Source: Candidatus Doudnabacteria bacterium (GTDB lineage Bacteria; Patescibacteriota; Doudnabacteria; UBA920). From it: a stretch of 64,000 nt of DNA. The stretch lies in assembly GCA_963768175.1 (NCBI GenBank), contig CAVYGQ010000002.1, positions 80,284-144,283 of the forward strand, written 5' to 3'. The translations under genes and the position numbers were made by a program. The notes under the pieces were generated by a model. That model worked only from the letters and a program-made list of their open reading frames with translations. It had not been told where the DNA came from and made no database searches. Shown one piece after another: positions 7,220 through 63,840 of the stretch (its first letter is position 1; each line of letters begins with the position of its first letter).

Positions 7220-7309
7220 TGGCGGAAGCGGAGGGATTCGAACCCTCGAGCCCTTTGACAGGCTGCGCGCTTTCCAAGCGCGTGCACTAGACCACTATGC
7301 GACGCTTCC
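7220..7309 (-). tRNA. tRNA-Ser (anticodon GGA)
   Basis: Reverse complement folds as a cloverleaf: acceptor GGAAGCG/CGCTTCC, anticodon loop TTGGAAA, long variable arm, T-loop TTCGAAT, encoded CCA; 90 nt. Confidence 0.9.
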
Positions 7310-7468
7310 TTATGGTCAAAACTTTCATCATTTTAACATAAAACCTTAGGTTTTGTCGAGGTTGCGGATATAGTGGAAATCAGGGTAAAATGAAGTTGTG
7401 GAAGTGTAGCGCGCCGATTTATCGGCATCGTCAGATTGCCCATAAATGGGCACACTACAAACTAATTT

Positions 7469-9229
7469 ATGAACGATCCCACACTTCAGGAAATCAAGGA
7501 TCGGCTAAACATCGCCGATGTGATATCAGGCTATATTCCCATAAAAAAAGCGGGCACCAATTTTAAGGCGCTTTGCCCGTTTCACCACGAGAAAACGCCT
7601 TCTTTACAAATTTCTCCGCAAAAGCAGATTTGGCACTGCTTTGGTTGCGGCGAAGGCGGAGATGTTTTTGGTTTTGTCATGAAGTATGAAAATTTGGAGT
7701 TCCGCGAAGCTTTGAAAATTTTGGCGGATAAAGCCGGGGTAAAGTTGCCGACTTACCATCCCGAAAATAAACAGCGGCAGGATGAAAAAGAATTGTTGCT
7801 AAGGATTAATGATTTTGCCGCGCGTTACTATCACGAGTTGCTGGTCGCGGACTTACGCGGAAACCAGGCCTTGCGGTATTTGGAACAACGCGGACTCACG
7901 CGGAAAACAATCGATCAATGGCAGATTGGCTTTGCGCCGGACGACTTTCATGCCCTTGAGCGGGCGCTTATGGCAAAAAAAGTAAACCTTAATGATGCTA
8001 TTAAGGCTGGGGTTATCGCAAAAAATGATCGTGGCGAGATGTATGATCGGTTCCGAGGGAGAGTGACTTTCCCCATTTATAATTATTTCGGCGATACGGT
8101 CGGGTTTTCCGCTCGTATTTTGGCTGACGATGGAAAGTCCGCTAAGTATATTAATTCTCCCGAAACACCCGTTTACAATAAGAGCAGAACTTTATTTGGT
8201 TTGAATTTTGCCAAGGAAGCAATTCGTAAAAAAGATGAAATGGTAATTGTAGAAGGGCAAATGGATTGTATTAGTTTGCACCAGTCGGGTTTTAAAAATG
8301 TGATAGCATCGAGTGGTACGGCATACAACGAAGGCGCAGTTGATTTTACCTCAGCAAGACGTTTGAATAATAATGTCAAAATGTGTTTTGATTCGGATAT
8401 AGCGGGGCAAACGGCATTGAAAAAAACCGGCGAGATGCTTTTAAAACAGGGCTTTCGGGTAAAAGTGATTATACTTAACGGGGTTAAAGACCCGGACGAA
8501 CTTATTAAAAAAAGCCCCGGGCTTTGGGAAAAAGCCGTGTCAGAGGCGGTATGGTTTTTAGACTGGCAAATGGATTTTGCCCAAAAAAAATTCGCCCAAG
8601 ATCCGGTTGAGCAAAAACATTATTTGAGTGAGCAAGTGGTGCCTTTGCTCGGCGCCATAGCCGATCCCTTGGAGCAGGACCACTACGTCCATAAACTTTC
8701 CACTAGATTTTTAATTTCCGAAAAAACCATATTAGACCAGATTAAAAAACAGGCTTTGGGTAAGAAGCCCGAATTGGACAAAGCTGGCCCCAATATTATG
8801 AACGGGAGTTTACTCTTGGAAAAGGAAATTTTGGGAGGCTTAATAGTTTTTCCGGAATTTTTGTCGGATGTTAGGGGTGGATTATTGAAAGAAGAGTTTG
8901 AGAATCCGGAGATTAGGGAGCTCATAAGCATTATTCTGGCGGGTGATAGCAAGGCTGTGGAGTTTGGAAATTCCACATTAGCCAAAGAAGCCCAGTTTAT
9001 GGTAGAATCACAGTTAGATGACTTGGGTGGTAACAGGACGGCTTTAGCTAAGGACCTGCAAAAAGCCTTTGCGATGTTAAAAATCGGGTCAATAAAAAAA
9101 CGCCAACAACAGCTTCAAAATGAAATAAAAAACGCGGAAATAGGTAAAAATAAGGCTAAAATTGAAGAATTGAACAAAGAATTCGCGCAGATTTCTGCGG
9201 AAAGAATTAAGTTCGAAGTTTTATTGTAG
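7469..9229 (+). CDS. dnaG: DNA primase
   Basis: CHC2 zinc finger [30 protein letters not shown]; TOPRIM region EGQMDCISL; 586 aa. Confidence 0.9.
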
Positions 9230-9234
9230 AAATT

Positions 9235-10545
9235 ATGGCCAAGAAGAAGCAAAATAAAAAATTTAAGAAAAAAAACGGCAAGACTGCAAAGCGGGGCATC
9301 CAAAAAAAATTCGGGGAAAAATACGTAAAAGTTTCTGTTGCCAAGCAGAGGATCCAAAAATCGGTATCAAAACCAACGCAGCCCCGTCTTAACCTGGCGA
9401 GGCAGGCGGTTTTACCGTTGCCCGTGCCAGCTTTGGATACCGAAAAGCTTTTGAAAAAGTTGATGGAAAAAGCTGCCGAACGGGGCTTTGTTACCGAAGC
9501 GGAAATTTTGCACGCTCTGCCTTATTTTGAAGACGACATACCGGGCCTTGAAAAAGTTATGGATGCTTTGGAAAAGCGCGGTATAGAAATTGTGGAGCAG
9601 GAAGTGGCCAGCGTTTGGGAGCAGAACAAGGCGCCGGAGATTAAGGCGGACGAAAAGTTAAGCAAAGGAAAAAAGAGAAAACAGGATGACATGGTGGACG
9701 CGTTTGATTTGGGCGATATTTATGACGACTCCATCCAAATGTATTTGCGCGAAATCGGCAAGGTGTCTTTACTTAAAGGGGCCGAAGAAATTGAACTTGC
9801 CAAAAGAATCGGCAAAGGCGACGTGGCCGCGCGCAGGAAATTGACCGAAGCAAACCTTCGTTTGGTGGTTTCCATTGCCAAAAAATATATGGGCCGCAAT
9901 TTAGGGCTGCTTGATTTAATTCAGGAAGGGAATTTGGGCCTGTTCCGCGCCGTAGAAAAATTTGACTGGCGCAAAGGGTACAAATTTTCCACTTACGCCA
10001 CTTGGTGGATCCGCCAAGCCATTACCAGGGCTTTAGCCGACCAATCCCGCACCATCCGGATACCCGTTCATATGGTGGAAACCTTAAATAAATATGCGCA
10101 GGCCGAACGCTCTTTGGTGCAGGATTTGGGACGCGAGCCTTTGCCCGAAGAAATTGCCGCGGAAATGGGCATTGAGGTGGAAAAAGTTTATCATCTTAAA
10201 AAGATTTCCCAGGAAACGGTGTCTATAGATTCCCCGGTAGGGGAAGACGACGGTGAAGATTCGTCACTCGGGGATTTTATTGTGGATGAAGATACGACGA
10301 AGCCAAACGAAGTCGCTGGCAGGCAAATTTTAAAGGAATATGTTGGCAATATTTTGCAGGATTTAGATCCGCGCGAACAAAAAATTCTAAAAATGCGTTT
10401 TGGCTTGGAAGACGGCGTTACCCACACCTTGGAAGAAGTGGGGGAAGAGTTCGGCGTCACCCGCGAACGCATCAGGCAAATAGAAAGCAAAGCCTTGGAG
10501 CGCATCCGGGAACATATTGATATAGATAAGCTTAGAGATTATTAG
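9235..10545 (+). CDS. rpoD: RNA polymerase sigma-70 factor
   Basis: Regions 1.2-4 present (YLREIG, region 2 [10 protein letters not shown], region 4 [20 protein letters not shown]); immediately downstream of dnaG as in the conserved operon. Confidence 0.9.
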
Positions 10546-11178: not shown

Positions 11179-13892
11179 TGCCCCTGTCCTGGAACGAAAT
11201 CAAAACCCGCGCTGTTGAATTTTCCAAAGAATGGGAAAATGAGAAGAGCGAAGATGCCGAAGCAAAGTCGTTTTGGGACGGCTTTTTTAATGTATTTGGC
11301 ATGACCCGCAGGCGTTTGGCAAGTTTTGAAGTGCCGGTCGCATTGCGCGACAAAAAGTTCGGCTATATTGACTTGTTTTGGAAGGGTATGTTAATGGTGG
11401 AGCACAAGTCCAAAGGAAAAAATTTGGACAGCGCCCTTGCCCAGGCCAAAGGTTATTTTGAAGGTATTAAGGAAGAGGATTTGCCTCGGTATATTGTTGT
11501 TTCGGACTTTGAAAGAATTAGGTTTTACGATTTGGAAACAGGCAAACATACGGAATTTGAGCTAAAAGATTTGCAAAAACATGTACAGCTGTTCGGATTC
11601 ATCGCTGGCTACCAAAAGCAGGAAATCCGCGAGCAGGATCCGGCCAACATTAAAGCCGCGGAATTAATGGCTGAACTGCACGACAGCATTTCTGAAGTCG
11701 GATATTATGGCCACCAGTTGGAAGTCTTTTTAGTCCGCATCTTGTTTTGTTTGTTTGCCGACGATACGGGAATTTTTTCCATTAAGGAACAGTTTTGGAA
11801 TTACGTAGAATGGAAATCTAAAGAGGACGGCTCGGATATGGGTTCGCTTTTGTCTATGCTTTTTCAAGTCCTAAATACCCCAAACGAAAAAAGACAGAAA
11901 ACTTTGGACGAAGAATTAACAAAATTTCCTTATGTAAACGGCGGCCTGTTTGCCGAAACCTTGCCGGTAGTCTCGTTTAACGGCGCGATGCGTAAAGCTC
12001 TTTTGGAATGTTGTAAATTTGACTGGTCAAATATCAGCCCCGCCATATTCGGCTCTATGTTCCAAGGAGTTATGGACAAAAAAGAGCGCCGGGCTTTGGG
12101 CGCGCATTACACTTCCGAAACCAATATTTTAAAGCTTATTAAGCCTTTATTTTTGGATGGACTTTGGGAAGAGTTTGAAAGCGTCAAACATAATAATCAA
12201 AAATTGCAGATTTTCCAAAAGAAAATCGCCGGTTTAAAATTTTTAGACCCTGCCTGCGGATGCGGCAATTTTTTGGTTATCGCATACCGCGAGCTACGGC
12301 TATTGGAGCTGGAAATTTTGAAGTTGCTTTATGGGCCGGGGAAAACAATCATCAAATTTAATATTCAAACAATTACCCAAGTTAGCCCGGAGCAGTTTTA
12401 TGGCATAGAAATAGGGGAGTTTGCCGGGCGCATAGCCGAAACCGCGATGTGGCTGGTGGATCACCAAATGAATCAACTGGCCAGCCAAGCTTTAGGCCAA
12501 TACTTTGTCCGCTTGCCATTAGATAAAGCGGCCCACATAAAAATTGGCAATGCTCTAACAACGGACTGGAAAGAAATAATCCAGCCTGAGGACTTAAATT
12601 ACATTTTAGGAAATCCTCCATTTATCGGTAAAAAAGAACAAACCAAGGAACAAAAAGCTGAACTGGAACTTATTTTTTCAGATGTCGAAGGCAGCAATGT
12701 GCTTGATTATGTTACATGCTGGTATCACAAAGCAGTTGAGTATATGAAAAATAATACTTTGATTCGGACAGCCTTTGTTTCGACAAATTCAATTACGCAA
12801 GGGGAACAAGTAGGTGTTTTTTGGAACTATTTATTAAAAAATAGTGTTGTGGTTCATTTTGCCCATAGGACTTTTGCATGGGGAAATGAAGCTAGGGGTA
12901 AGGCCGGCGTACATTGCGTAATAATAGGTTTTGGACTATTTGATATTAAAGATAAAAGACTTTTTGAGTACGAAAATGTAAAATCAGAACCACATGCAAC
13001 AAAAGTTTCTAACATAAATCCATATTTAGTCCCAGCTGAAAATATTTTGCTAAATCGTAGAAGTAAGCCATTGTCCCCAAAAACCGCAGAAGTCTCTTAT
13101 GGGAGTATGCCCATAGATGAGGGGCGGCTTATTTTATCAGCCGAACAGAAAGAACATTTGGTAAAAGATGAGCCAAAAGTAAAAAACTTCATTCGTCAGT
13201 ATATGGGCGGGGATGAATTTTTAAACAACATAAATCGTTATTGTTTGTGGCTAGTCGACTGCCCCCCAGAAATTTTAAGGCAAATGCCAAAGGTATTAGA
13301 ACTTGTAGAATCAAATCGTAAATATAGGGAATCAAGCGGGCGAGAAGCAACACGTCGTTTGGCAAAAAAACCAGGACTATTTGGAGAAATAAGACAACCA
13401 GAAAGCAATTATTTGCTCATTCCAAAAGTATCGTCGGAAAACAGAAATTATGTTCCTATAGGCTTTTGCACCCCTGAGATTATTGCGAGCGGAACGGCTT
13501 TAATAGTTGCTTCTGCGGGATTGTATGAGTTTGGAATTTTACAATCCTTAATGCATTTTGCTTGGATGAGTGCTGTCTGCGGAAGACTTGAGAGCCGTTT
13601 TGTTTATTCCGCTGGAATTGTTTACAACAATTTTCCATGGCCGGAAAATCCATCAGCGGACAAAGTTAAAGCTATAGAACAAGCCGCACAAAATGTTTTG
13701 GATGTTAGGTTAAAATATCCAACCAGTTCGCTTGCCGACCTATACGACCCGCTTACAATGCCTGCAGACCTTGTAAAAGCCCATCAAGATTTAGATAAAG
13801 CCGTAGATTCCGCCTATACCCGCAAAACCTTCGCCACCGACGCCGAGCGGTTGGAATTTTTGTTTGAGCTATATAAAAAATATACAAAATAA
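11166..13892 (+). CDS. MmeI-like type IIL restriction-modification enzyme (N-terminal PD-ExK nuclease fused to a gamma-class N6-adenine methyltransferase)
   Basis: About 905 aa; N-terminal IDLFWKGMLMVEHK gives D...ExK as in MmeI; methyltransferase motif I LDPACGCGNFLV and motif IV GNPPFIG; length matches the MmeI family. The real start is probably the ATG at 11178. Confidence 0.75.
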   Translation: MEKIMPLSWNEIKTRAVEFSKEWENEKSEDAEAKSFWDGFFNVFGMTRRRLASFEVPVALRDKKFGYIDLFWKGMLMVEHKSKGKNLDSALAQAKGYFEGIKEEDLPRYIVVSDFERIRFYDLETGKHTEFELKDLQKHVQLFGFIAGYQKQEIREQDPANIKAAELMAELHDSISEVGYYGHQLEVFLVRILFCLFADDTGIFSIKEQFWNYVEWKSKEDGSDMGSLLSMLFQVLNTPNEKRQKTLDEELTKFPYVNGGLFAETLPVVSFNGAMRKALLECCKFDWSNISPAIFGSMFQGVMDKKERRALGAHYTSETNILKLIKPLFLDGLWEEFESVKHNNQKLQIFQKKIAGLKFLDPACGCGNFLVIAYRELRLLELEILKLLYGPGKTIIKFNIQTITQVSPEQFYGIEIGEFAGRIAETAMWLVDHQMNQLASQALGQYFVRLPLDKAAHIKIGNALTTDWKEIIQPEDLNYILGNPPFIGKKEQTKEQKAELELIFSDVEGSNVLDYVTCWYHKAVEYMKNNTLIRTAFVSTNSITQGEQVGVFWNYLLKNSVVVHFAHRTFAWGNEARGKAGVHCVIIGFGLFDIKDKRLFEYENVKSEPHATKVSNINPYLVPAENILLNRRSKPLSPKTAEVSYGSMPIDEGRLILSAEQKEHLVKDEPKVKNFIRQYMGGDEFLNNINRYCLWLVDCPPEILRQMPKVLELVESNRKYRESSGREATRRLAKKPGLFGEIRQPESNYLLIPKVSSENRNYVPIGFCTPEIIASGTALIVASAGLYEFGILQSLMHFAWMSAVCGRLESRFVYSAGIVYNNFPWPENPSADKVKAIEQAAQNVLDVRLKYPTSSLADLYDPLTMPADLVKAHQDLDKAVDSAYTRKTFATDAERLEFLFELYKKYTK

Positions 13893-29257: not shown

Positions 29258-29330
29258 AGAGCAGCGAGTTGAGGACAGTCCTCTGGTTTCAATAGCGCTT
29301 CGTATTAGAGGACTGCCCTCAACCATATTT
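29258..29330. repeat. hairpin element of the TTGAGGACAG family
   Basis: GTTGAGGACAGTCCTCTGG-loop-AGAGGACTGCCCTCAAC. Confidence 0.5.
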
Positions 29331-29410
29331 TATTTACCCCGTTAGAAGTTCAAACATTTAAATAAGAAGTTTCTAAAGAGGAAATAAAATTCTAAAATTA
29401 ATTTAAAAAT

Positions 29411-42569: not shown

Positions 42570-42826
42570 TTCTTTATGCGCAATAAATATCCAGCCGTTC
42601 TCCACAAACCATGTTCTAACCCCGACGCAAGGTCGGGGCAAGCAGCGTCCGCAGCATTGAGCCATTCGACCCATTCGGCTTTCGCTCAGGGTCGCCCCGA
42701 GGGAACTCGAGGGGCGACAAGCTCATGGCCTGCGGCCAACAAAAGTCGCCCATATTTGTGGGCGATTTTTGTATAGGGAAGTGGGACGATTAGAACTGAA
42801 AAGGTATTTTTGAGTGTGATATAATT
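42570..42826 (+). repeat. array repeat R6 (extended)
   Basis: TTATGCGCAATAAATATCCAGCC ... GTTCTAACCCCGACG ... 59-bp block GAGCCATTCG...GAGGGGCGA ... GGCCAACAAAA, hairpin GTCGCCCA/TGGGCGAT, GTATAGGGAAGTGGGACGATTAGAAC ... TATAAT. Confidence 0.85.
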
Positions 42827-43724: not shown

Positions 43725-43905
43725 TCCGTAGGATTTATATCGGGGATATAAATCTCTCCGGTTTCCGTAATTTTGGTTCTAACGTTATCTACGATGCCGA
43801 GCCATTCGACCCATTCGGCTTTCGCTCAGGGTCGCCCCGAGGGAACTCGAGGGGCGATTTTTATATAGGGAGGTGTAAAGGTTAGAACTGAAAATGGTGT
43901 ATAAT
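43725..43905 (+). repeat. array repeat R7
   Basis: GGTTCTAACGTTATCTACGATGCCGAGCCATTCG ... identical 59-bp block ... ATATAGGGAGGTGTAAAGGTTAGAACTGAAAATGGTGTATAAT. Confidence 0.85.
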
Positions 43906-46619: not shown

Positions 46620-46714
46620 ACGGGTCGTTCAGCAGCCATAGCCAACAAAAGTCGCCCATATTTGTGGGCGATTTTTGTATCTTACTATGCGGTTTTGAGC
46701 TTGTTTGATATAAT
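46620..46714 (+). repeat. array repeat R9
   Basis: AGCCAACAAAAGTCGCCCATATTTGTGGGCGATTTTTGTAT (hairpin identical to R6) ... GATATAAT. Confidence 0.75.
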
Positions 46715-56184: not shown

Positions 56185-57198
56185 TTAGGTCTTAGGTTTT
56201 AGTAAATAAGCTGATAAATTTTTTTCAATCCTCTCCGCGATCGGTGTTTGTAAGTCTGTTTCAAACTTCTGGCCGGTGATTTGTTCAAATATCTGGATGT
56301 ATCTGCTTGATAATTCCGCGACCATATCTGCCGGAGCAGGGGGCAAGACTTTATCTTCGTAGGGATTACTGTGTTCTTTAAACCACAATCTTAAAAATTC
56401 TTTGTCAAAGTTTTGGGGCTCCAACCCGGCGTCTATTCTGGCTTGATAACTGTCCGCTTGCCAATATCTGGAGGAGTCCGGTGTGTGGACTTCGTCGATC
56501 AGCATTAATTTACCGTTATTATCAAGCCCGAATTCGTATTTAGTGTCTACCAAAATCAGCCCGCGGCTTAAAGCAATCTTTTGGCCGCGCTTAAATAATT
56601 TAATGGCGGTATCGGCAAGTTGTTTCCACAACTCTTTCGGCAGGATTTTTTCTTCAATAATCTGTTTGGAGTTAAGCGGCCTGTCGTGTTCATCCGATTT
56701 GGTAGTAGGGGTTAGCACCGGTTTTTTCAGCTTTTGGTTTTTTTTCATGCCGTCGGGCAGGGTAAAATCCCCAAAATCCCTTTGGCCTTTTTGGTAAAGC
56801 GTCCAAAGGCTGGTGCCGGTCACGCCGGTAATATAGCCTCTTACTACCATTTCTATGGGTATTACCGAGCATTTTTTTACCACCACCACGTTGGGGTCGG
56901 GCGAGCCGATAATATGGTTTTGGATAATGTTTTTGGTTTGACCAAACCAAAATTTGCTGGTCTGGGTTAATACTTGGCCTTTAAAGGGGATAAGCGCCAA
57001 GTTGCGGTCAAACGCTGAATACCTGTCCGTCGACACCAAAATAATTTTGTCCGGCTGGGTATAAATATCCCGCACTTTTCCCTGGCGCCTTAGGCCTAAG
57101 TTGATGTTTTTTCCGCCGGAGGCGGATCCGCCTTTGGCGGAAAAATCGGTCTTTTCCAAAACACGGGTTAAGTTTTGCTGGATTGTTTGTTTGTCCAT
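56185..57198 (-). CDS. purC: phosphoribosylaminoimidazole-succinocarboxamide synthase (SAICAR synthetase)
   Basis: 337 aa long-form PurC; GKVRDIY and LILVDTKYEFG motifs. Confidence 0.85.
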   Translation of the reverse strand: MDKQTIQQNLTRVLEKTDFSAKGGSASGGKNINLGLRRQGKVRDIYTQPDKIILVSTDRYSAFDRNLALIPFKGQVLTQTSKFWFGQTKNIIQNHIIGSPDPNVVVVKKCSVIPIEMVVRGYITGVTGTSLWTLYQKGQRDFGDFTLPDGMKKNQKLKKPVLTPTTKSDEHDRPLNSKQIIEEKILPKELWKQLADTAIKLFKRGQKIALSRGLILVDTKYEFGLDNNGKLMLIDEVHTPDSSRYWQADSYQARIDAGLEPQNFDKEFLRLWFKEHSNPYEDKVLPPAPADMVAELSSRYIQIFEQITGQKFETDLQTPIAERIEKNLSAYLLKPKT

Positions 57199-59006: not shown

Positions 59007-59705
59007 TTAGGAATTGAGTTTTTTAATAATCCTAATCAAATCTTTTATATTATTGATTAAAAAGTCAGAATGGTGTTTTTTGAGGCGGGCGATGCTGTTC
59101 CAGCCGCCAGCCAGAGCAACGGTATGGTAACCAAATTGTTTGCCTATTTCGATTTCTTCTTCCGTATCACCCACAGAAATTATCTCAGATGGTTTTAATT
59201 TATTTTTTTTGGCGTAATTTTTGAGCTTGTCGGCCTTACTTCTGTTATGTAGGTGCGATCGGTCGCCCTCCATTCTGGCTAAGGTTGTCGCAAAATACTT
59301 TTTTATTTTAAGTCTTATGAGATGCTTGTTTATGTCAAAAATAGTGTGATTACTATATATAATACTTACAATAGATTGCCCCTCTAGCCATTCCAAAGTT
59401 GTTTTTACTCCGCCACGGGTACGACAGTGTTTGGCTTGTATTTCGTAGTTTGAATGAAAGATCCGATTAATTTTAGTAAAATTTTTATTAAAAAATTTAA
59501 TATCAAATCCAGCCTTAAGCCAATAATTTTTTACAGGGATTTCAAAAGTTTTTTGAAAATGTGCTAAGCTTATAGGTCTTAGTTTGAACTTAACCAACGT
59601 TAAGCTATTGGCTCTGATATTGGCATTAGTATCAGCGAGGATTGTTCCGTTCCAGTCAAAGGCGATTAATTTTATTGCCATAAAATTTTCTTTTTCCGGC
59701 GTCAT
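59007..59705 (-). CDS. HAD-family hydrolase
   Basis: IAFDWNGTIL motif I and GDTEEEIEIG motif IV region. Confidence 0.7.
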   Translation of the reverse strand: MTPEKENFMAIKLIAFDWNGTILADTNANIRANSLTLVKFKLRPISLAHFQKTFEIPVKNYWLKAGFDIKFFNKNFTKINRIFHSNYEIQAKHCRTRGGVKTTLEWLEGQSIVSIIYSNHTIFDINKHLIRLKIKKYFATTLARMEGDRSHLHNRSKADKLKNYAKKNKLKPSEIISVGDTEEEIEIGKQFGYHTVALAGGWNSIARLKKHHSDFLINNIKDLIRIIKKLNS

Positions 59706-59795
59706 TCTGAGCCCGAATGCATCTGAGGGCGAAGAATCTTTTCAACTTTGATGGGATCCTTCGCTCGATGAACTCGCTCAGGATGACGCCACAGT
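59690..59795. repeat. palindromic element GTCATTCTGAGC...GCTCAGGATGAC
   Basis: Inverted arms around GATCCTTCGCTCGA; related to the 31327 and 53216 elements. Confidence 0.5.
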
Positions 59796-61193
59796 GGTAA
59801 GTGATTGCTGCCCGATGTCGGTGCGGTAGTGTAAGCCGTCAAAATTTATCAGTTTTATCGCGGCGTAGGCTTTGTTTAAGGCGGATTGCAAATCATCGGC
59901 AACTGCCGTAACTCCCAGGACGCGGCCGCCGTTGGTGATAACCCCTCCTCGCCCCCCCTCTGCAAGGGGGGGAACGGAAGGAGAAAAGGCTGTACCAGCG
60001 TGGAAAATTATTATGTCATCCAGCTTTTCCGCTTCCTCTATCCCTGTGATAATTTTGCCTTTTTCGTATTTGCCGGGATAGCCGCCGCTTGATAAAACAA
60101 TGCAGCAGGCGTACTGTTTGGACCATTCAATTTTAACATCTGCTAATTTACCGCCTATACAAGCTTCCAAAATATCCAGCAAATCGGTCTTTAAAAGGCG
60201 CATATAGCTTTGCGTTTCCGGGTCGCCAAAGCGGGAGTTGAATTCTATAACCTTAGGGCCGTCTTTGGTCATCATCAGCCCCGGATAAAGTAAGCCCACA
60301 AACGGCAAACCCAGGTTTTTTAATCTTTCCAGCGCCGGTTTTACAATTTTTGACGAGACCTCGTCCATTATTGCTTCGCTAACCCACGGCACCGGGGCAA
60401 TGGTGCCCATACCACCCGTGTTTGGGCCTAAGCCTCCATCGAAAATCGGTTTATGGTCTTGGGACGAGGGCAGTAATTGGAAATCATTCCCGTCGGAAAA
60501 AGCGTGGATGGAAAATTCTTGTCCTTGCAAAAACTCTTCTACAACAACTTCGTTTCCGGCATCGCCAAAAATTTTATTAACCATCACGTCCTGCAAGAAT
60601 TTTTTAGCTTCATCCAAAGTTTTACAAACGCTCACGCCCTTGCCTAAAGCCAGACCGGAGGCTTTGATGACGATTTTTCTTTCTTTTCCTCCCCCTTCAG
60701 GGGGGAGGCTAGGTGGGGGTGAAGCAGGACTTGTCGTGTTCCACCCTCCCCCAGCCCCTCCCGTCAAGGGAGGGGAAAGATAATAGGATTCTATATATTG
60801 CAAAGCCTTTTCATAGTCCGCAAACGTCTTGAATTCTGCAGTTGGGATGTTATTTTTTTGCATTAGCTCTTTGGCAAAAGCCTTGCTGGCTTCTATTTGC
60901 GCGGCCTGCTTGTTCGGGCCCCAAATTTTAAGCCCGCGTTTTTGAAATTCATCCACAGCCCCCAAAGCCAAAGCATCATCCGGGCCGACAACGGTTAAAT
61001 CTATCTGATTTTTTTCAGCCCAATCGGCCAAAGCTAAAACATCGTTTGCGCCAATCGCAACATTTTCCCCAAGCTGTGCGGTGCCCGCATTGCCCGGCGC
61101 GGTATAAATTTTGCCCACGCGAGGAGACTGTTTAAGCTTCCATGCCAAAGCGTGTTCGCGCCCGCCACTGCCGATTATAAGTAAATTGACCAT
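59778..61193 (-). CDS. purD: phosphoribosylamine-glycine ligase carrying in-frame low-complexity insertions
   Basis: MVNLLIIGSGGREHALAWK N-terminus, ATP-grasp core; extra segments SPPLTGGAGGGWNTTSPASPPPSLPPEGGGK and SVPPLAEGGRGG are not in canonical PurD. Confidence 0.9.
   Translation of the reverse strand: MVNLLIIGSGGREHALAWKLKQSPRVGKIYTAPGNAGTAQLGENVAIGANDVLALADWAEKNQIDLTVVGPDDALALGAVDEFQKRGLKIWGPNKQAAQIEASKAFAKELMQKNNIPTAEFKTFADYEKALQYIESYYLSPPLTGGAGGGWNTTSPASPPPSLPPEGGGKERKIVIKASGLALGKGVSVCKTLDEAKKFLQDVMVNKIFGDAGNEVVVEEFLQGQEFSIHAFSDGNDFQLLPSSQDHKPIFDGGLGPNTGGMGTIAPVPWVSEAIMDEVSSKIVKPALERLKNLGLPFVGLLYPGLMMTKDGPKVIEFNSRFGDPETQSYMRLLKTDLLDILEACIGGKLADVKIEWSKQYACCIVLSSGGYPGKYEKGKIITGIEEAEKLDDIIIFHAGTAFSPSVPPLAEGGRGGVITNGGRVLGVTAVADDLQSALNKAYAAIKLINFDGLHYRTDIGQQSLTTVASS
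59944..59980. repeat. GC-rich palindrome inside purD (encodes PPLAEGG on the minus strand)
   Basis: CCCCCCC-TCTGCAA-GGGGGGG. Confidence 0.8.
60688..60775. repeat. cluster of GC-rich palindromes inside purD
   Basis: CCTCCCCC-TTCA-GGGGGGAGG and CCCCTCCC-GTCAA-GGGAGGGG, in frame. Confidence 0.8.
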
Positions 61194-61256
61194 AAAGTTT
61201 AGTTAAATTTCCGCCAGAGGCGGATCCGCCTACGGCGGAAAATAAAATTGACAAAA

Positions 61257-61604
61257 TTATAGAAACAACGCGGCGACAAAACCTAAAATGCCAAAAATCA
61301 AGCCAATAAAAGCTCCCTTAGTCGGCGTTTGGCCGCCGACGAAATAAGCCATAAACGGTTCTATAATCAAAATGGAAGTAATGGATATTACGCTGACTAT
61401 CCAAATATTTTTAAAGTTTTTTAGGCCAAGCATGTAACCGGCGAGCAGGAAGATGCCGGAAATTAAGATCATCGGCCAGATCCTAAAAAAGACCCTGGCA
61501 AAAGATTCGGCATGTGTATGGTAATATCGGGCGCCAAAAATTTCGGCGTAAATGCCGGCGAGCTCACCGATAATTATGATTGTCGCGGCTAAAAATTTGT
61601 TCAT
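61257..61604 (-). CDS. hypothetical membrane protein
   Basis: 115 aa, four TM segments; inside the pur operon. Confidence 0.4.
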   Translation of the reverse strand: MNKFLAATIIIIGELAGIYAEIFGARYYHTHAESFARVFFRIWPMILISGIFLLAGYMLGLKNFKNIWIVSVISITSILIIEPFMAYFVGGQTPTKGAFIGLIFGILGFVAALFL

Positions 61605-61644
61605 ATTTTAAGTCACATTATTTAACGACCGTTAAATAATGTGA

Positions 61645-62244
61645 TTATGTTGTTGTCAATTTTTGGAGTACTTCCACATAAAGCTGATTTTCTTTGGCTT
61701 TGAGCCTGGCATACAGAGAATCAACGTTATCGCTTGCCTGGATTTTTTCAAACACCCGTCCCAGCACCGGGCCAAAGTCAAAGTTTAGAGTTAAAAAGTG
61801 GATGGAGGAGCCGGCATATGCGGCTTTTTGGTTTAAAAAATTTGCTATTGCTTTTTCGGTCAGCATCCCTTTGTTCCACAAACCATCGGTGTTGTCAGGA
61901 TTTTTTACAATGCCATCAACCGTATTCGGAATAAGGCCTGGGTGTAGGTTTAAAATTTTATTGGGGAAAGCCAAAATAACCTCGTCTAAAATGATTTGTT
62001 TCCAGCCGGCCAGGCAAATGTAATCGGGCTGTAATTTTTTAAGTAACGGCAACAATTCTTCCTTGCGCGGGCAGATTTGAATCGGTAAATTATGTTTTTT
62101 GGCGCGCTCCAAACCTAAGGCGTCGGCTTTGTCGGAAATTACGGCCGCGATTTTGGCTTTAATTTTACTTTGGGCAATTCCATCAATAATTGCCTGCAGG
62201 TTGGTGCCGGTGCCGGCGTTGGAAATAAGGACGACGAGGTTCAT
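61645..62244 (-). CDS. purN: phosphoribosylglycinamide formyltransferase
   Basis: MNLVVLISNAGTGTNLQAIID ... NLHPGLIP formyltransferase motifs. Confidence 0.85.
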   Translation of the reverse strand: MNLVVLISNAGTGTNLQAIIDGIAQSKIKAKIAAVISDKADALGLERAKKHNLPIQICPRKEELLPLLKKLQPDYICLAGWKQIILDEVILAFPNKILNLHPGLIPNTVDGIVKNPDNTDGLWNKGMLTEKAIANFLNQKAAYAGSSIHFLTLNFDFGPVLGRVFEKIQASDNVDSLYARLKAKENQLYVEVLQKLTTT

Positions 62245-62355
62245 AAAGTTAATGACAAAAATTAAATAAATGACAAAATTGACAAAAATGAATGCAGTTA
62301 TTTTTGTTCATTTCCGTCCGCCTCGGCTCGCGCCGGGCGAGACGGGTCGTTTTTT

Positions 62356-63840
62356 TCATCCTTGTTCACTTTTCTGGTATACCGGCTCTTTAACATCCGC
62401 TTGTTTTTCTTTTAAGTCTATCGGGTAATGTCCGGTAAAGCAGGAAGTGCAGAAAAGTTCTTCCGAGAGTCCGGTAGATTTTATTAAACCTTTGAGCGAT
62501 AAAAAGCAGAGTGAGGTGGCACCTAAAAACTGCCGAATTTCTTCCACGGTTTTATGCGAAGCAATCAGCTTTTCCTGTTTAGGTGTGTCTATGCCGTAAA
62601 AGTCGGGAAACTTTACCGGCGGTGAGCTGATAAGCATGTGAACTTCTGTGCAGCCGGCCTCAAACAACATTTTTACCAATTGGCGGGAAGTGGTGCCGCG
62701 GACAATGGAGTCGTCCATGACAATAACTTTTTTGCCCTTTAAAACTTCGGTCAAGGGAGTAAGTTTTAATTTTACCCCCAGGTCGCGGCTGTGCTGTTCG
62801 GGCTGGATGAATGTCCTATGGATGTAACGGTTTTTTACCAAGGCCATTTCCATTGGGATAGCGGAAACGCTGCTGTAACCGCTGGCCACCGGGTAGGCGG
62901 TTTCCGGGACCGGAACCACAATATCGGCATTTTTAGGGTATTCTTTAAACAGCTGGATGCCAAAGTTTTTGCGGACTTCGTAAATTGACTTGCCTAAAAT
63001 GTTGCTGTCGGGGCGAGCAAAGTAAACAAATTCAAAAATATCCACTTTAGTTTTGCTCGGCTCAATTTGTACGGACTCAACGCCGTTTTTGGTAACAATT
63101 ACCATTTCACCGGGATTGACTTCGCGCACAAAGTCCGCGCCGACGGTATGGAAGGCGCAGGATTCGGAGGCAAAAACTATGGCGTCGCCGTTAACCCCGT
63201 TAGAAGTCTGATGCGCTTGCGCATCAGCAGTCCCGACTTCTGGTCGGGACTGACTTCTAATGGGGTAAATCTTCCCCATACACAGGGGCCTGATGCCAAA
63301 AGTGTCGCGCACCGCCACCAAGGTATCTTTGGTTAAAATTGTCAGACAAAAAGCGCCAGTAAACAGCGGATAGCTTTTTACTACGGCGTCTTTAATTGAC
63401 AGTCCGTGTTCCAGATAGTAGCCTAAGGTTTTGGCCATAAGCTCGGAGTCCGAGCAGTCGTTGGTGGGAATGTCTTTTGCTTCCAAGAATTCTTTAAGCA
63501 GCCTTACCGAGGGCAGGTTGCCGTTGTGGGCCAAAGCCAACTGGTTGTCAATTACTACGGGTTGGGCGTGTTTAATGTTTGAACCTTCGGAGGTGGAATA
63601 ACGGTTATGACCAATGGCTATATGGCCTTTTAAATTTTGGATGGTTTCTTCATTATAGACATGGGTAACCAAACCCATATTTTTATAGCAATCTATGTGG
63701 TTGCCGTCGGCCGTGGCAATGCCGCTGCTTTCTTGGCCGCGGTGCTGGAGCGCGAACAAACCGTAAAACGTCAGGCGGCTGACGTCCAAATTTTTGCCGT
63801 AGATGCCGAAGACGCCGCATTTTTCTCCGAGATTTTCCAT
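62356..63840 (-). CDS. purF: amidophosphoribosyltransferase carrying an in-frame insertion
   Basis: MCGVFGIYG N-terminal nucleophile, PRTase domain; about 20 extra residues (SQSRPEVGTADAQAHQTSNGVNG) relative to canonical PurF. Confidence 0.9.
   Translation of the reverse strand: MENLGEKCGVFGIYGKNLDVSRLTFYGLFALQHRGQESSGIATADGNHIDCYKNMGLVTHVYNEETIQNLKGHIAIGHNRYSTSEGSNIKHAQPVVIDNQLALAHNGNLPSVRLLKEFLEAKDIPTNDCSDSELMAKTLGYYLEHGLSIKDAVVKSYPLFTGAFCLTILTKDTLVAVRDTFGIRPLCMGKIYPIRSQSRPEVGTADAQAHQTSNGVNGDAIVFASESCAFHTVGADFVREVNPGEMVIVTKNGVESVQIEPSKTKVDIFEFVYFARPDSNILGKSIYEVRKNFGIQLFKEYPKNADIVVPVPETAYPVASGYSSVSAIPMEMALVKNRYIHRTFIQPEQHSRDLGVKLKLTPLTEVLKGKKVIVMDDSIVRGTTSRQLVKMLFEAGCTEVHMLISSPPVKFPDFYGIDTPKQEKLIASHKTVEEIRQFLGATSLCFLSLKGLIKSTGLSEELFCTSCFTGHYPIDLKEKQADVKEPVYQKSEQG
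63201..63259. repeat. nested palindrome (cloverleaf-like) inside purF
   Basis: TAGAAGTC[CTGATGCGC-TTG-GCGCATCAG][CAGTCCCGAC-TTCTG-GTCGGGACTG]GACTTCTA. Confidence 0.8.

Follow-up and report, generated by a model that had tools for sequence, protein, structure and literature searches.

In-frame palindromic inserts within genes are the hallmark of the Rickettsia palindromic elements (RPEs) (PMC10969869), which are about 100-150 bp long, are restricted to Rickettsia and in some cases end in CGTC (PMC3733652). Repetitive extragenic palindromic sequences (REPs) tagged with GTAG or CGTC have also been found inside genes of several species, where they encode 20-30 residues (Di Nocera et al. 2013, PMC3733652). 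According to the same study, whose coverage does not include Patescibacteria, related species may hold different REPs at one gene site, and the genes of REP-associated tyrosine transposases (RAYTs) are flanked by GTAG REPs (PMC3733652). Two inverted REP units with a variable spacer form a long hairpin, the REPIN (Bertels & Rainey 2011, PMC3116915; PMC3337134); in the REPIN-RAYT system the arms are conserved while the spacers vary, the transposase is single-copy and REP-flanked, and the elements, described as extragenic, are usually genome- or genus-specific (PMC3116915; PMC3337134). Transposable elements of the miniature inverted-repeat type (MITEs) that fuse in frame with host open reading frames (ORFs) are also known, e.g. 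the QMITEs of Coxiella (PMC5896051) and intragenic enterobacterial repetitive intergenic consensus (ERIC) sequences. Here we describe short in-frame hairpin inserts in the purine-biosynthesis genes purD, purF and purC of a Candidatus Doudnabacteria bacterium (contig CAVYGQ010000002.1, positions 80,284-144,283; this whole 64-kb stretch, with a GC content of 43%, is referred to below as the window). Literature searches found no description of in-frame palindromic inserts in the candidate phyla radiation (CPR)/Patescibacteria.

The three genes belong to a purine-biosynthesis (pur) operon located on the minus strand at the right end of the window. It is probable (roughly three chances in four) that their inserts are copies of several short, non-autonomous hairpin repeat families of REP/REPIN-like or MITE-like type, abundant in the Doudnabacteria-like lineage. 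The comparisons presented below demonstrate that the segments are insertions which preserve the reading frame, that they belong to multi-copy families with both genic and intergenic members, that they turn over between close relatives and that they occupy loops. Insert boundaries were defined using codon alignments with the syntenic pur operons of relatives (L001-L007). The closest PurD and PurF relatives carry the annotation Candidatus Doudnabacteria or Patescibacteria, and the PurD homologues are annotated as phosphoribosylamine--glycine ligase.

The purD gene (59778..61193, minus strand) encodes a phosphoribosylamine-glycine ligase of 471 aa (PDB phmmer E = 1e-117 against PurD structures) and contains two insert sites. 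The first-pass annotation of the window had reported three C-run/G-run palindromes in this gene, read on the minus strand as PPLAEGG, PPEGGG and PPLTGG. All three are present, with these translations: CCCCCCCT/CTGCA/AGGGGGGG at 59952-59972 (the start is 59952, not 59944 as originally given), CCTCCCCC/TTCAG/GGGGGAGG at 60688-60708 and CCCCTCCC/GTCAA/GGGAGGGG at 60755-60775. The last two had been treated as separate items, but proved to be the two arms of one 99-nt element. Perfect 8-bp stems with at least 80% GC were counted in the sequence and in dinucleotide-preserving shuffles; purD contains three C-run/G-run hairpins of this kind compared to 0.012 expected per shuffle (0/500 shuffles reach three), and the whole window contains six compared to 0.3 expected, half of them inside purD.

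The first insert (site 1; 60683..60785, minus strand) is a REPIN-like element of 99 nt that is read in frame as residues 137-169 (YYLSPPLTGGAGGGWNTTSPASPPPSLPPEGGG). Its left arm (CCCCTCCC-loop-GGGAGGGG-CTGGGGGAGGGTGG) is composed of the hairpin at 60755-60775 and a tail rich in G (coding strand, GGGAGGGGCTGGGGGAGGGTGG), and is followed by a 20-nt variable spacer and the inverted right arm (ACCCCCACCTAGCCTCCCCC-loop-GGGGGAGG) with the hairpin at 60688-60708. The second insert (site 3; 59949..59981, minus strand) has a length of 33 nt (PSVPPLAEGGR) and contains the hairpin at 59952-59972. The claim that canonical PurD lacks these segments was borne out by alignment, since residues ~137-171 and ~403-414 are extra with respect to solved PurD structures. 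The PurD of L005, which is ~81% identical, has neither insert; the site-1 insert is also missing from L006 and many other homologues, and the site-3 insert from L003 and L006. L001 and L003 carry, at the same position, site-1 elements homologous to that of the window at the nucleotide level, with unrelated spacers, and all three elements have a length of exactly 99 nt. The stem and loop of the site-3 insert are identical in L004 and L007, the former having an additional nested hairpin.

The PurD inserts of the relatives, without exception, fold into GC-rich hairpins, and orthologs sharing a segment keep its palindromic structure. A survey of 118 PurD homologues revealed that the same three or four loops hold differing inserts or none; at site 1 there are at least seven element families, patchily distributed over the tree, and in more distant Patescibacteria (60-67% identity) the loops are mostly empty. 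AlphaFold2 modelling of the PurD encoded in the window (mean pLDDT, the predicted local distance difference test score, 84.8) predicts site 1 as coil between the helix 127-139 and the strand 174-178, with very low confidence (pLDDT 33-47), and site 3 as coil between two strands.

The purF gene (62356..63840, minus strand; amidophosphoribosyltransferase, 494 aa; PDB phmmer E = 6e-116 against PurF of B. subtilis) hosts one insert of 75 nt (63193..63267, minus strand) encoding 25 residues (YPIRSQSRPEVGTADAQAHQTSNGV). A nested palindrome within an extra segment of this gene had been noted before; this was confirmed, although the palindrome extends over ~63192-63266 and the segment comprises 25 residues rather than ~20. 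Within its outer stem (TACCCCATTAGAAGTC...GACTTCTAACGGGGT) lie two inner hairpins, giving a three-way junction with a folding energy of -30.2 kcal/mol as DNA (z = -11). PurF residues ~191-214 are extra in comparison with solved PurF structures, and the 75 nt are missing from L001, L004 and L007 (the PurF of L004 is 90% identical) as well as from the nearest PurF relatives in the databases (87-90% identity). L003 and L006 contain a related element at the same purF site, with the same architecture and a similar outer stem (ACCCCGTTAAAT...ATTTAACGGGGT).

A third gene, purC (56185..57198, minus strand; SAICAR synthetase, 337 aa; Pfam SAICAR_synt, E = 8e-73), was not on the original list, which named inserts in purD and purF only. 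It contains an in-frame insert of 36 nt (57103..57138, minus strand; 12 residues, AKGGSASGGKNI), which belongs to a double hairpin of the form TCCGCC-N3-GGCGGA x2 (57108-57145; folding z = -5.3) located downstream of the conserved PurC N-terminus. The 12 residues are missing from four relatives, three of which are 80-86% identical. A second copy of this double hairpin (TCCGCC-AGA-GGCGGA TCCGCC-TAC-GGCGGA; z = -4.7) lies in intergenic DNA at 61207..61242, 4 kb from the purC insert, between purD and a small membrane-protein gene; it shows 94% identity over 35 nt to positions 57109-57143. Examples of predicted junction peptides of the inserts are IESYYLSPPLTGG, GKIYPIRSQ and TDFSAKGGSA.

Comparison of ten pur genes from seven loci revealed that most lineage-specific indels of at least 8 residues form hairpins, with z mostly between -3 and -8, in contrast to ordinary indels, for which z is near 0. 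Half-copies of the purD site-1 element were seen in two genes of L001, purQ and purM, and between genes in L004. The 22-mer GGGAGGGGCTGGGGGAGGGTGG is found exactly in 105 stretches (L008-L112) of species-representative genomes. Among the hosts are Planctomycetota, Chloroflexota, Geobacter, Rhodocyclaceae, Alphaproteobacteria and Nitrospirota, and the copies frequently show this two-armed architecture as well. The 22-mer has four G-tracts, and together with the preceding CCCCTCCC hairpin it is multi-copy in single metagenome-assembled genomes (MAGs), e.g. Planctomycetaceae LejiaC_61_11 and Geobacter UBA9976. An open-frame test of genic versus extragenic copies in the GC-rich phyla is uninformative at 60-70% GC. 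The 22-mer is read in frame in Ca. Doudnabacteria RIFCSPHIGHO2_01_FULL_46_14 (L073, 2537-5617), within a 1026-aa ORF apparently encoding an isoleucyl-tRNA synthetase, which contains three further P/G-rich segments of the same look. As a separate observation, copies of the 22-mer often follow an apparent stop codon (..TAAGC..).

The purF-type family is also multi-copy. Low-GC metagenome contigs contain the outer stem ACCCCGTTAAAT...ATTTAACGGGGT at least 120 times, in most cases around two small hairpins, and the family is characterized by 12-nt terminal inverted arms and conserved TTY/RAA flanks. Its in-frame hosts include genes for an RsmI-like methylase, a class-V aminotransferase, UvrC, enolase, YchF, RecG and radical-SAM proteins.

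In all the fetched loci the pur genes are intact ORFs despite dozens of inserts, and all the inserts in these intact genes are multiples of three in length and stop-free. For the purF-type family, 115 distinct copies were classified by their flanking ORFs and by core length modulo 3. In all copies read through in frame within long ORFs (17/17) the core length equals 1 mod 3, whereas the 92 copies without long ORFs on both flanks are split 23/37/32 over the three length classes (Fisher p = 1.4e-6). The sequence data argue that the intragenic copies are probably translated and filtered by selection: intact pur genes and a single intragenic length class are what purifying selection on translated inserts predicts, and would be unexpected if the elements were spliced or bypassed.

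These results suggest a mechanism in which the copies would land widely, so that the survivors in essential genes would be those that (i) entered a tolerant surface loop, (ii) added 3n bases and (iii) brought no stop in the host frame. Since C-run/G-run stems cannot hold a stop codon and their codons stand for Pro, Gly, Ser, Ala, Arg and Glu, they would be translated into flexible, disordered and tolerated loops. The elements may move as single-stranded hairpins by means of an HUH/Y1 (RAYT-like) transposase.

A GTAG...CTAC-tagged REP doublet was identified in the window at 7406..7458, in an intergenic region adjoining a tRNA gene (7223-7309). The PurD site-1 insert of L004 and L007, itself an in-frame doublet, is of this family, as are the repeats that flank RAYT-like genes of relatives. 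A gene encoding a RAYT-like HUH/Y1 transposase of 137 aa is present inside the pur operon of L001 (15568-15981), L003 (9728-10138) and L004 (9561-9974), flanked in each case by GTAG REPs; it lies at differing positions in the three relatives, in the purC-purB or the purN-purD interval. An ORF scan of the window for hairpin inserts and GC spikes gave no C/G-run insert-like hit outside purC, purD and purF, the hits being uncompared with orthologues; those elsewhere are mostly conserved-looking motifs, e.g. VRSSATAED and DPFIGAGTT. Confinement of the hairpin inserts to pur genes in the window would fit local hopping from an operon REP/RAYT locus. RAYT-type mobilization of the window's own inserts can be proposed by analogy only, because no tag, target-site duplication or linked enzyme was found for the C-run/G-run and purF-type families.

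Two further observations concern the pur operon of L006, in which purN (8894-9928) is called as a 344-aa product with a PDDEXK_3 domain and a second PDDEXK_3 gene is located at 12040-12444.

Several observations weigh against the view that the inserts are mobile repeat copies. The RAYT-like proteins of the relatives score 69-75 bits with the NCBIfam model REP_Tyr_transpos, just under its curated cut-off of 80. No Y1 transposase was detected in the window by tblastn with these proteins, and the same search over the 105 loci with the 22-mer gave one weak match (L034), to a gene flanked by different repeats. The C-run/G-run and purF-type families showed neither a GTAG/CGTC tag nor a linked enzyme, no parent insertion sequence (IS) was identified for the purF-type family, and direct repeats at its junctions were not clearly above chance at any tested boundary, as regards a target-site duplication. 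Among the sequences compared there was no second full copy of the purF variant of the window, the only match being one of 15 nt to its end, at 29336. Moreover, the translation of the inserts is something that we infer. Finally, the element arms (92-97% identity) are far better kept than the synonymous sites of the host gene, which would not be expected of a purely neutral passenger.

This last point was established by comparing the window purD with those of L001, L003, L004 and L007, for which the host core is 68-77% identical, with a value of 45-55% at third codon positions. In the site-1 element the left arm is identical at 34-35/36 positions, including 12/12 third positions (P about 1e-4), and the site-3 hairpin is identical at 28/30, including 10/10 third positions; the spacer between the site-1 arms is saturated (9/20). 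A compensatory double change is seen in one inner stem of the purF elements of L003 and L006 (CCCGCC/GGCGGG versus TTCGCC/GGCGAA). Such upkeep could reflect (i) selection on structure, (ii) gene conversion with other copies or (iii) repeated site-specific re-insertion. We advance only tentatively, and with rather low expectation, the proposal, which also draws on the G-quadruplex-capable 22-nt core shared exactly by many phyla, that within essential genes the nucleotide sequence of the arms is actively preserved and that the arms are not decaying passengers. Were this so, either a conserved factor would recognise the arm sequences, or site-specific homing or gene conversion would keep re-seeding the same enzyme loops; in the latter case the loops would be hypervariable cassettes in which at least seven families replace one another.

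The same evidence bears on an explanation that is compatible with a mobile origin but appears unlikely to us, namely that the hairpins are functional nucleic-acid elements under selection. They might act as mRNA or DNA structures at which ribosomes or polymerases pause, as G-quadruplex/hairpin switches or as protein-binding sites. Besides the conservation of the left arm and the site-3 hairpin relative to the saturated spacer and the host third positions, the fixed 99-nt length of the three site-1 elements and the compensatory change in purF are in agreement with this, as is the 22-mer, which is exact across many phyla and whose four G-tracts, separated by 1-2-nt loops, form a canonical G-quadruplex motif on the sense strand of purD (the stretch for which the question of G-quadruplex versus hairpin arises is GGGAGGGGCUGGGGGAGGGUGG). 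However, at every site there are close relatives that manage without the insert, unrelated families substitute for one another in one loop, and gene conversion or repeated re-insertion could also yield the conservation of the arms. Moreover, no Rfam family was matched (a tRNA was the only hit in the window at the gathering threshold, and at E <= 1 there were meaningless miRNA-precursor matches on the long hairpin), and in a terminator scan the purD and purF hairpins showed no terminator-like context on the coding strand.

It is very improbable that the elements remain untranslated, being removed from the mRNA or skipped by ribosome bypass as in T4 gene 60 and the mitochondrial byp elements. 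Strong hairpins in coding sequence are indeed typical of known bypass elements. Nevertheless, skipping would leave no filter on length or stops, and both the 3n, stop-free pur inserts and the contrast between one intragenic length class and uniform extragenic ones speak against it. In addition, bypass elements are recognised by an untranslated gap with matching take-off and landing codons and by a stop after take-off, whereas no in-frame stop follows a take-off codon here.

Very improbable, too, is the idea that these segments are ordinary lineage-specific Pro/Gly loops, without any mobile element, whose palindromy arises from the complementarity of CCN and GGN codons or from local template-switch mutation. 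Pro-Pro...Gly-Gly peptides necessarily give C-run/G-run DNA, and the purF element ends on its right in a sequence (AACGGGGT) similar to the flank of the empty site (AACGGGGAT). Yet the complementarity reaches wobble positions and codons other than those for Pro and Gly, neither the purF nor the purC element is rich in Pro and Gly, and the number of purD hairpins far exceeds that in shuffled sequence. Identical nucleotide stretches also turn up in different frames and genes, between genes and in other phyla, and the multi-copy families have already largely refuted this explanation.

An artefact of metagenome assembly or chimerism can be set aside, for although repeats can mislead assemblers, the site-3 insert is reproduced with 100% identity in P0084, an independent Logan assembly, the insert-bearing operons of L001 (ENA) and L002 (JGI) are identical, and numerous assemblies show orthologous inserts at identical codon positions, with the frame intact.

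When the inserts, regarded as copies of hairpin repeat families, are compared with the described systems, the resemblance to RPEs pointed out in the first-pass annotation holds for behaviour: palindromic families lie in frame in unrelated housekeeping genes, add a peptide at a tolerated position and have intergenic copies (PMC10969869; PMC3733652). In contrast to RPEs, the present elements are only 21-99 nt long, are GC-rich in a genome of 43% GC, lack CGTC and occur in Patescibacteria, and several unrelated families share the same loops. As the host is Patescibacteria-like, membership of the RPE families (RPE-1 to RPE-10) is not claimed, and mechanistically the REP/REPIN-type or MITE-like elements are closer. 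With the intragenic REPs the inserts share the form of short stem-loops, often inverted dimers, inside genes, as well as the presence of different elements at one gene site in related species; the GTAG tag was however seen only in the 7406-7458 family and in the site-1 inserts of L004 and L007, the purD, purF and purC inserts of the window being untagged.

The purD site-1 element, with its inverted arms, variable spacer and multi-copy doublet organization, resembles a REPIN, and the GTAG family also consists of doublets. The differences are that the elements are here read through as protein and that one of the arm sequences recurs exactly in many phyla, no cognate RAYT being identified for it. 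As regards the predominantly extragenic location of REPs and REPINs, the C/G-run and purF-type elements of the window are intragenic, whereas 92/115 metagenome copies of the purF type are without long ORFs on both flanks. MITEs are similar in having terminal inverted repeats, in being non-autonomous and in forming in-frame fusions with host genes; they differ in that neither a target-site duplication nor a parent IS was found (purF-type family) and in that the present elements are much shorter than typical MITEs.

Yeast mitochondrial genes carry GC clusters. Coding palindromes that are long, perfect and encode conserved protein parts have been described in the mitochondria of Nematomorpha (PMC6649704). 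Both are inverted repeats that, like the inserts, form hairpins in essential coding sequence and, as is probable for the inserts, are translated; unlike the inserts, they are organellar, and the Nematomorpha repeats are not dispersed loop inserts of many families.

Intragenic REPs and RPEs have already been described, and the present case extends this kind of event to a new phylum, where it is seen at high density. Worth following are the density of the inserts, the fact that many families reuse the same loops, and the way in which the arms are conserved. In-frame hairpin invasion of housekeeping genes, for which Rickettsia and a handful of REP-rich bacteria are the best-known examples, is according to these data frequent also in a small-genome CPR lineage, and would explain many of the lineage-specific insertions and odd Pro/Gly-rich protein segments of this lineage. 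Homology searches, domain annotation and structure prediction can be led astray by such inserts, which also provide natural markers of insertion-tolerant enzyme loops. The contrast in length classes between intragenic and extragenic copies provides a simple, sequence-only test for the translation of such elements, and the conservation of the arms together with the cross-phylum 22-mer offers leads on the maintenance of REP-like sequences.

The pur operon of the window also contains purN (61645-62244, minus strand) and, between purN and purD, the small membrane-protein gene (61257-61604, minus strand) mentioned above; an HAD hydrolase gene followed by purE and purM lies between purD and purC, and purB follows purC, all on the minus strand. 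The spacer between purD and the HAD hydrolase gene contains an inverted-repeat element of ~93 nt (59698..59790), read directly from the sequence, with the arms GGCGTCATTCTGAGC and GCTCAGGATGACGCC; the last codons and the stop of purD (..VASS*) lie in the right arm, and an ASS* tail also ends the PurD of P0002, P0023 and P0094. A partial copy of this element was noted in L007 (16533-16574).

Between purN and the small membrane-protein gene there is an AT-rich, perfect hairpin of 16 bp (61611-61646), a copy of which (94% identical) occupies the equivalent position in L007 (9957-9993). The 15-nt end match to the purF element (29336-29350, ACCCCGTTAGAAGTT) is an intergenic near-match to its terminal arm, situated just after a strong hairpin at 29271-29320. 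Elsewhere in the window, an exact 50-nt repeat (TCGACCCATTCGGCTTTCGCTCAGGGTCGCCCCGAGGGAACTCGAGGGGC) occurs in two intergenic places (42666-42715 and 43806-43855), and a near-identical pair of terminator-like hairpins (AAAAGTCGCCCATATTTGTGGGCGATTTTTGT) is located at 42726-42775 and 46631-46680.

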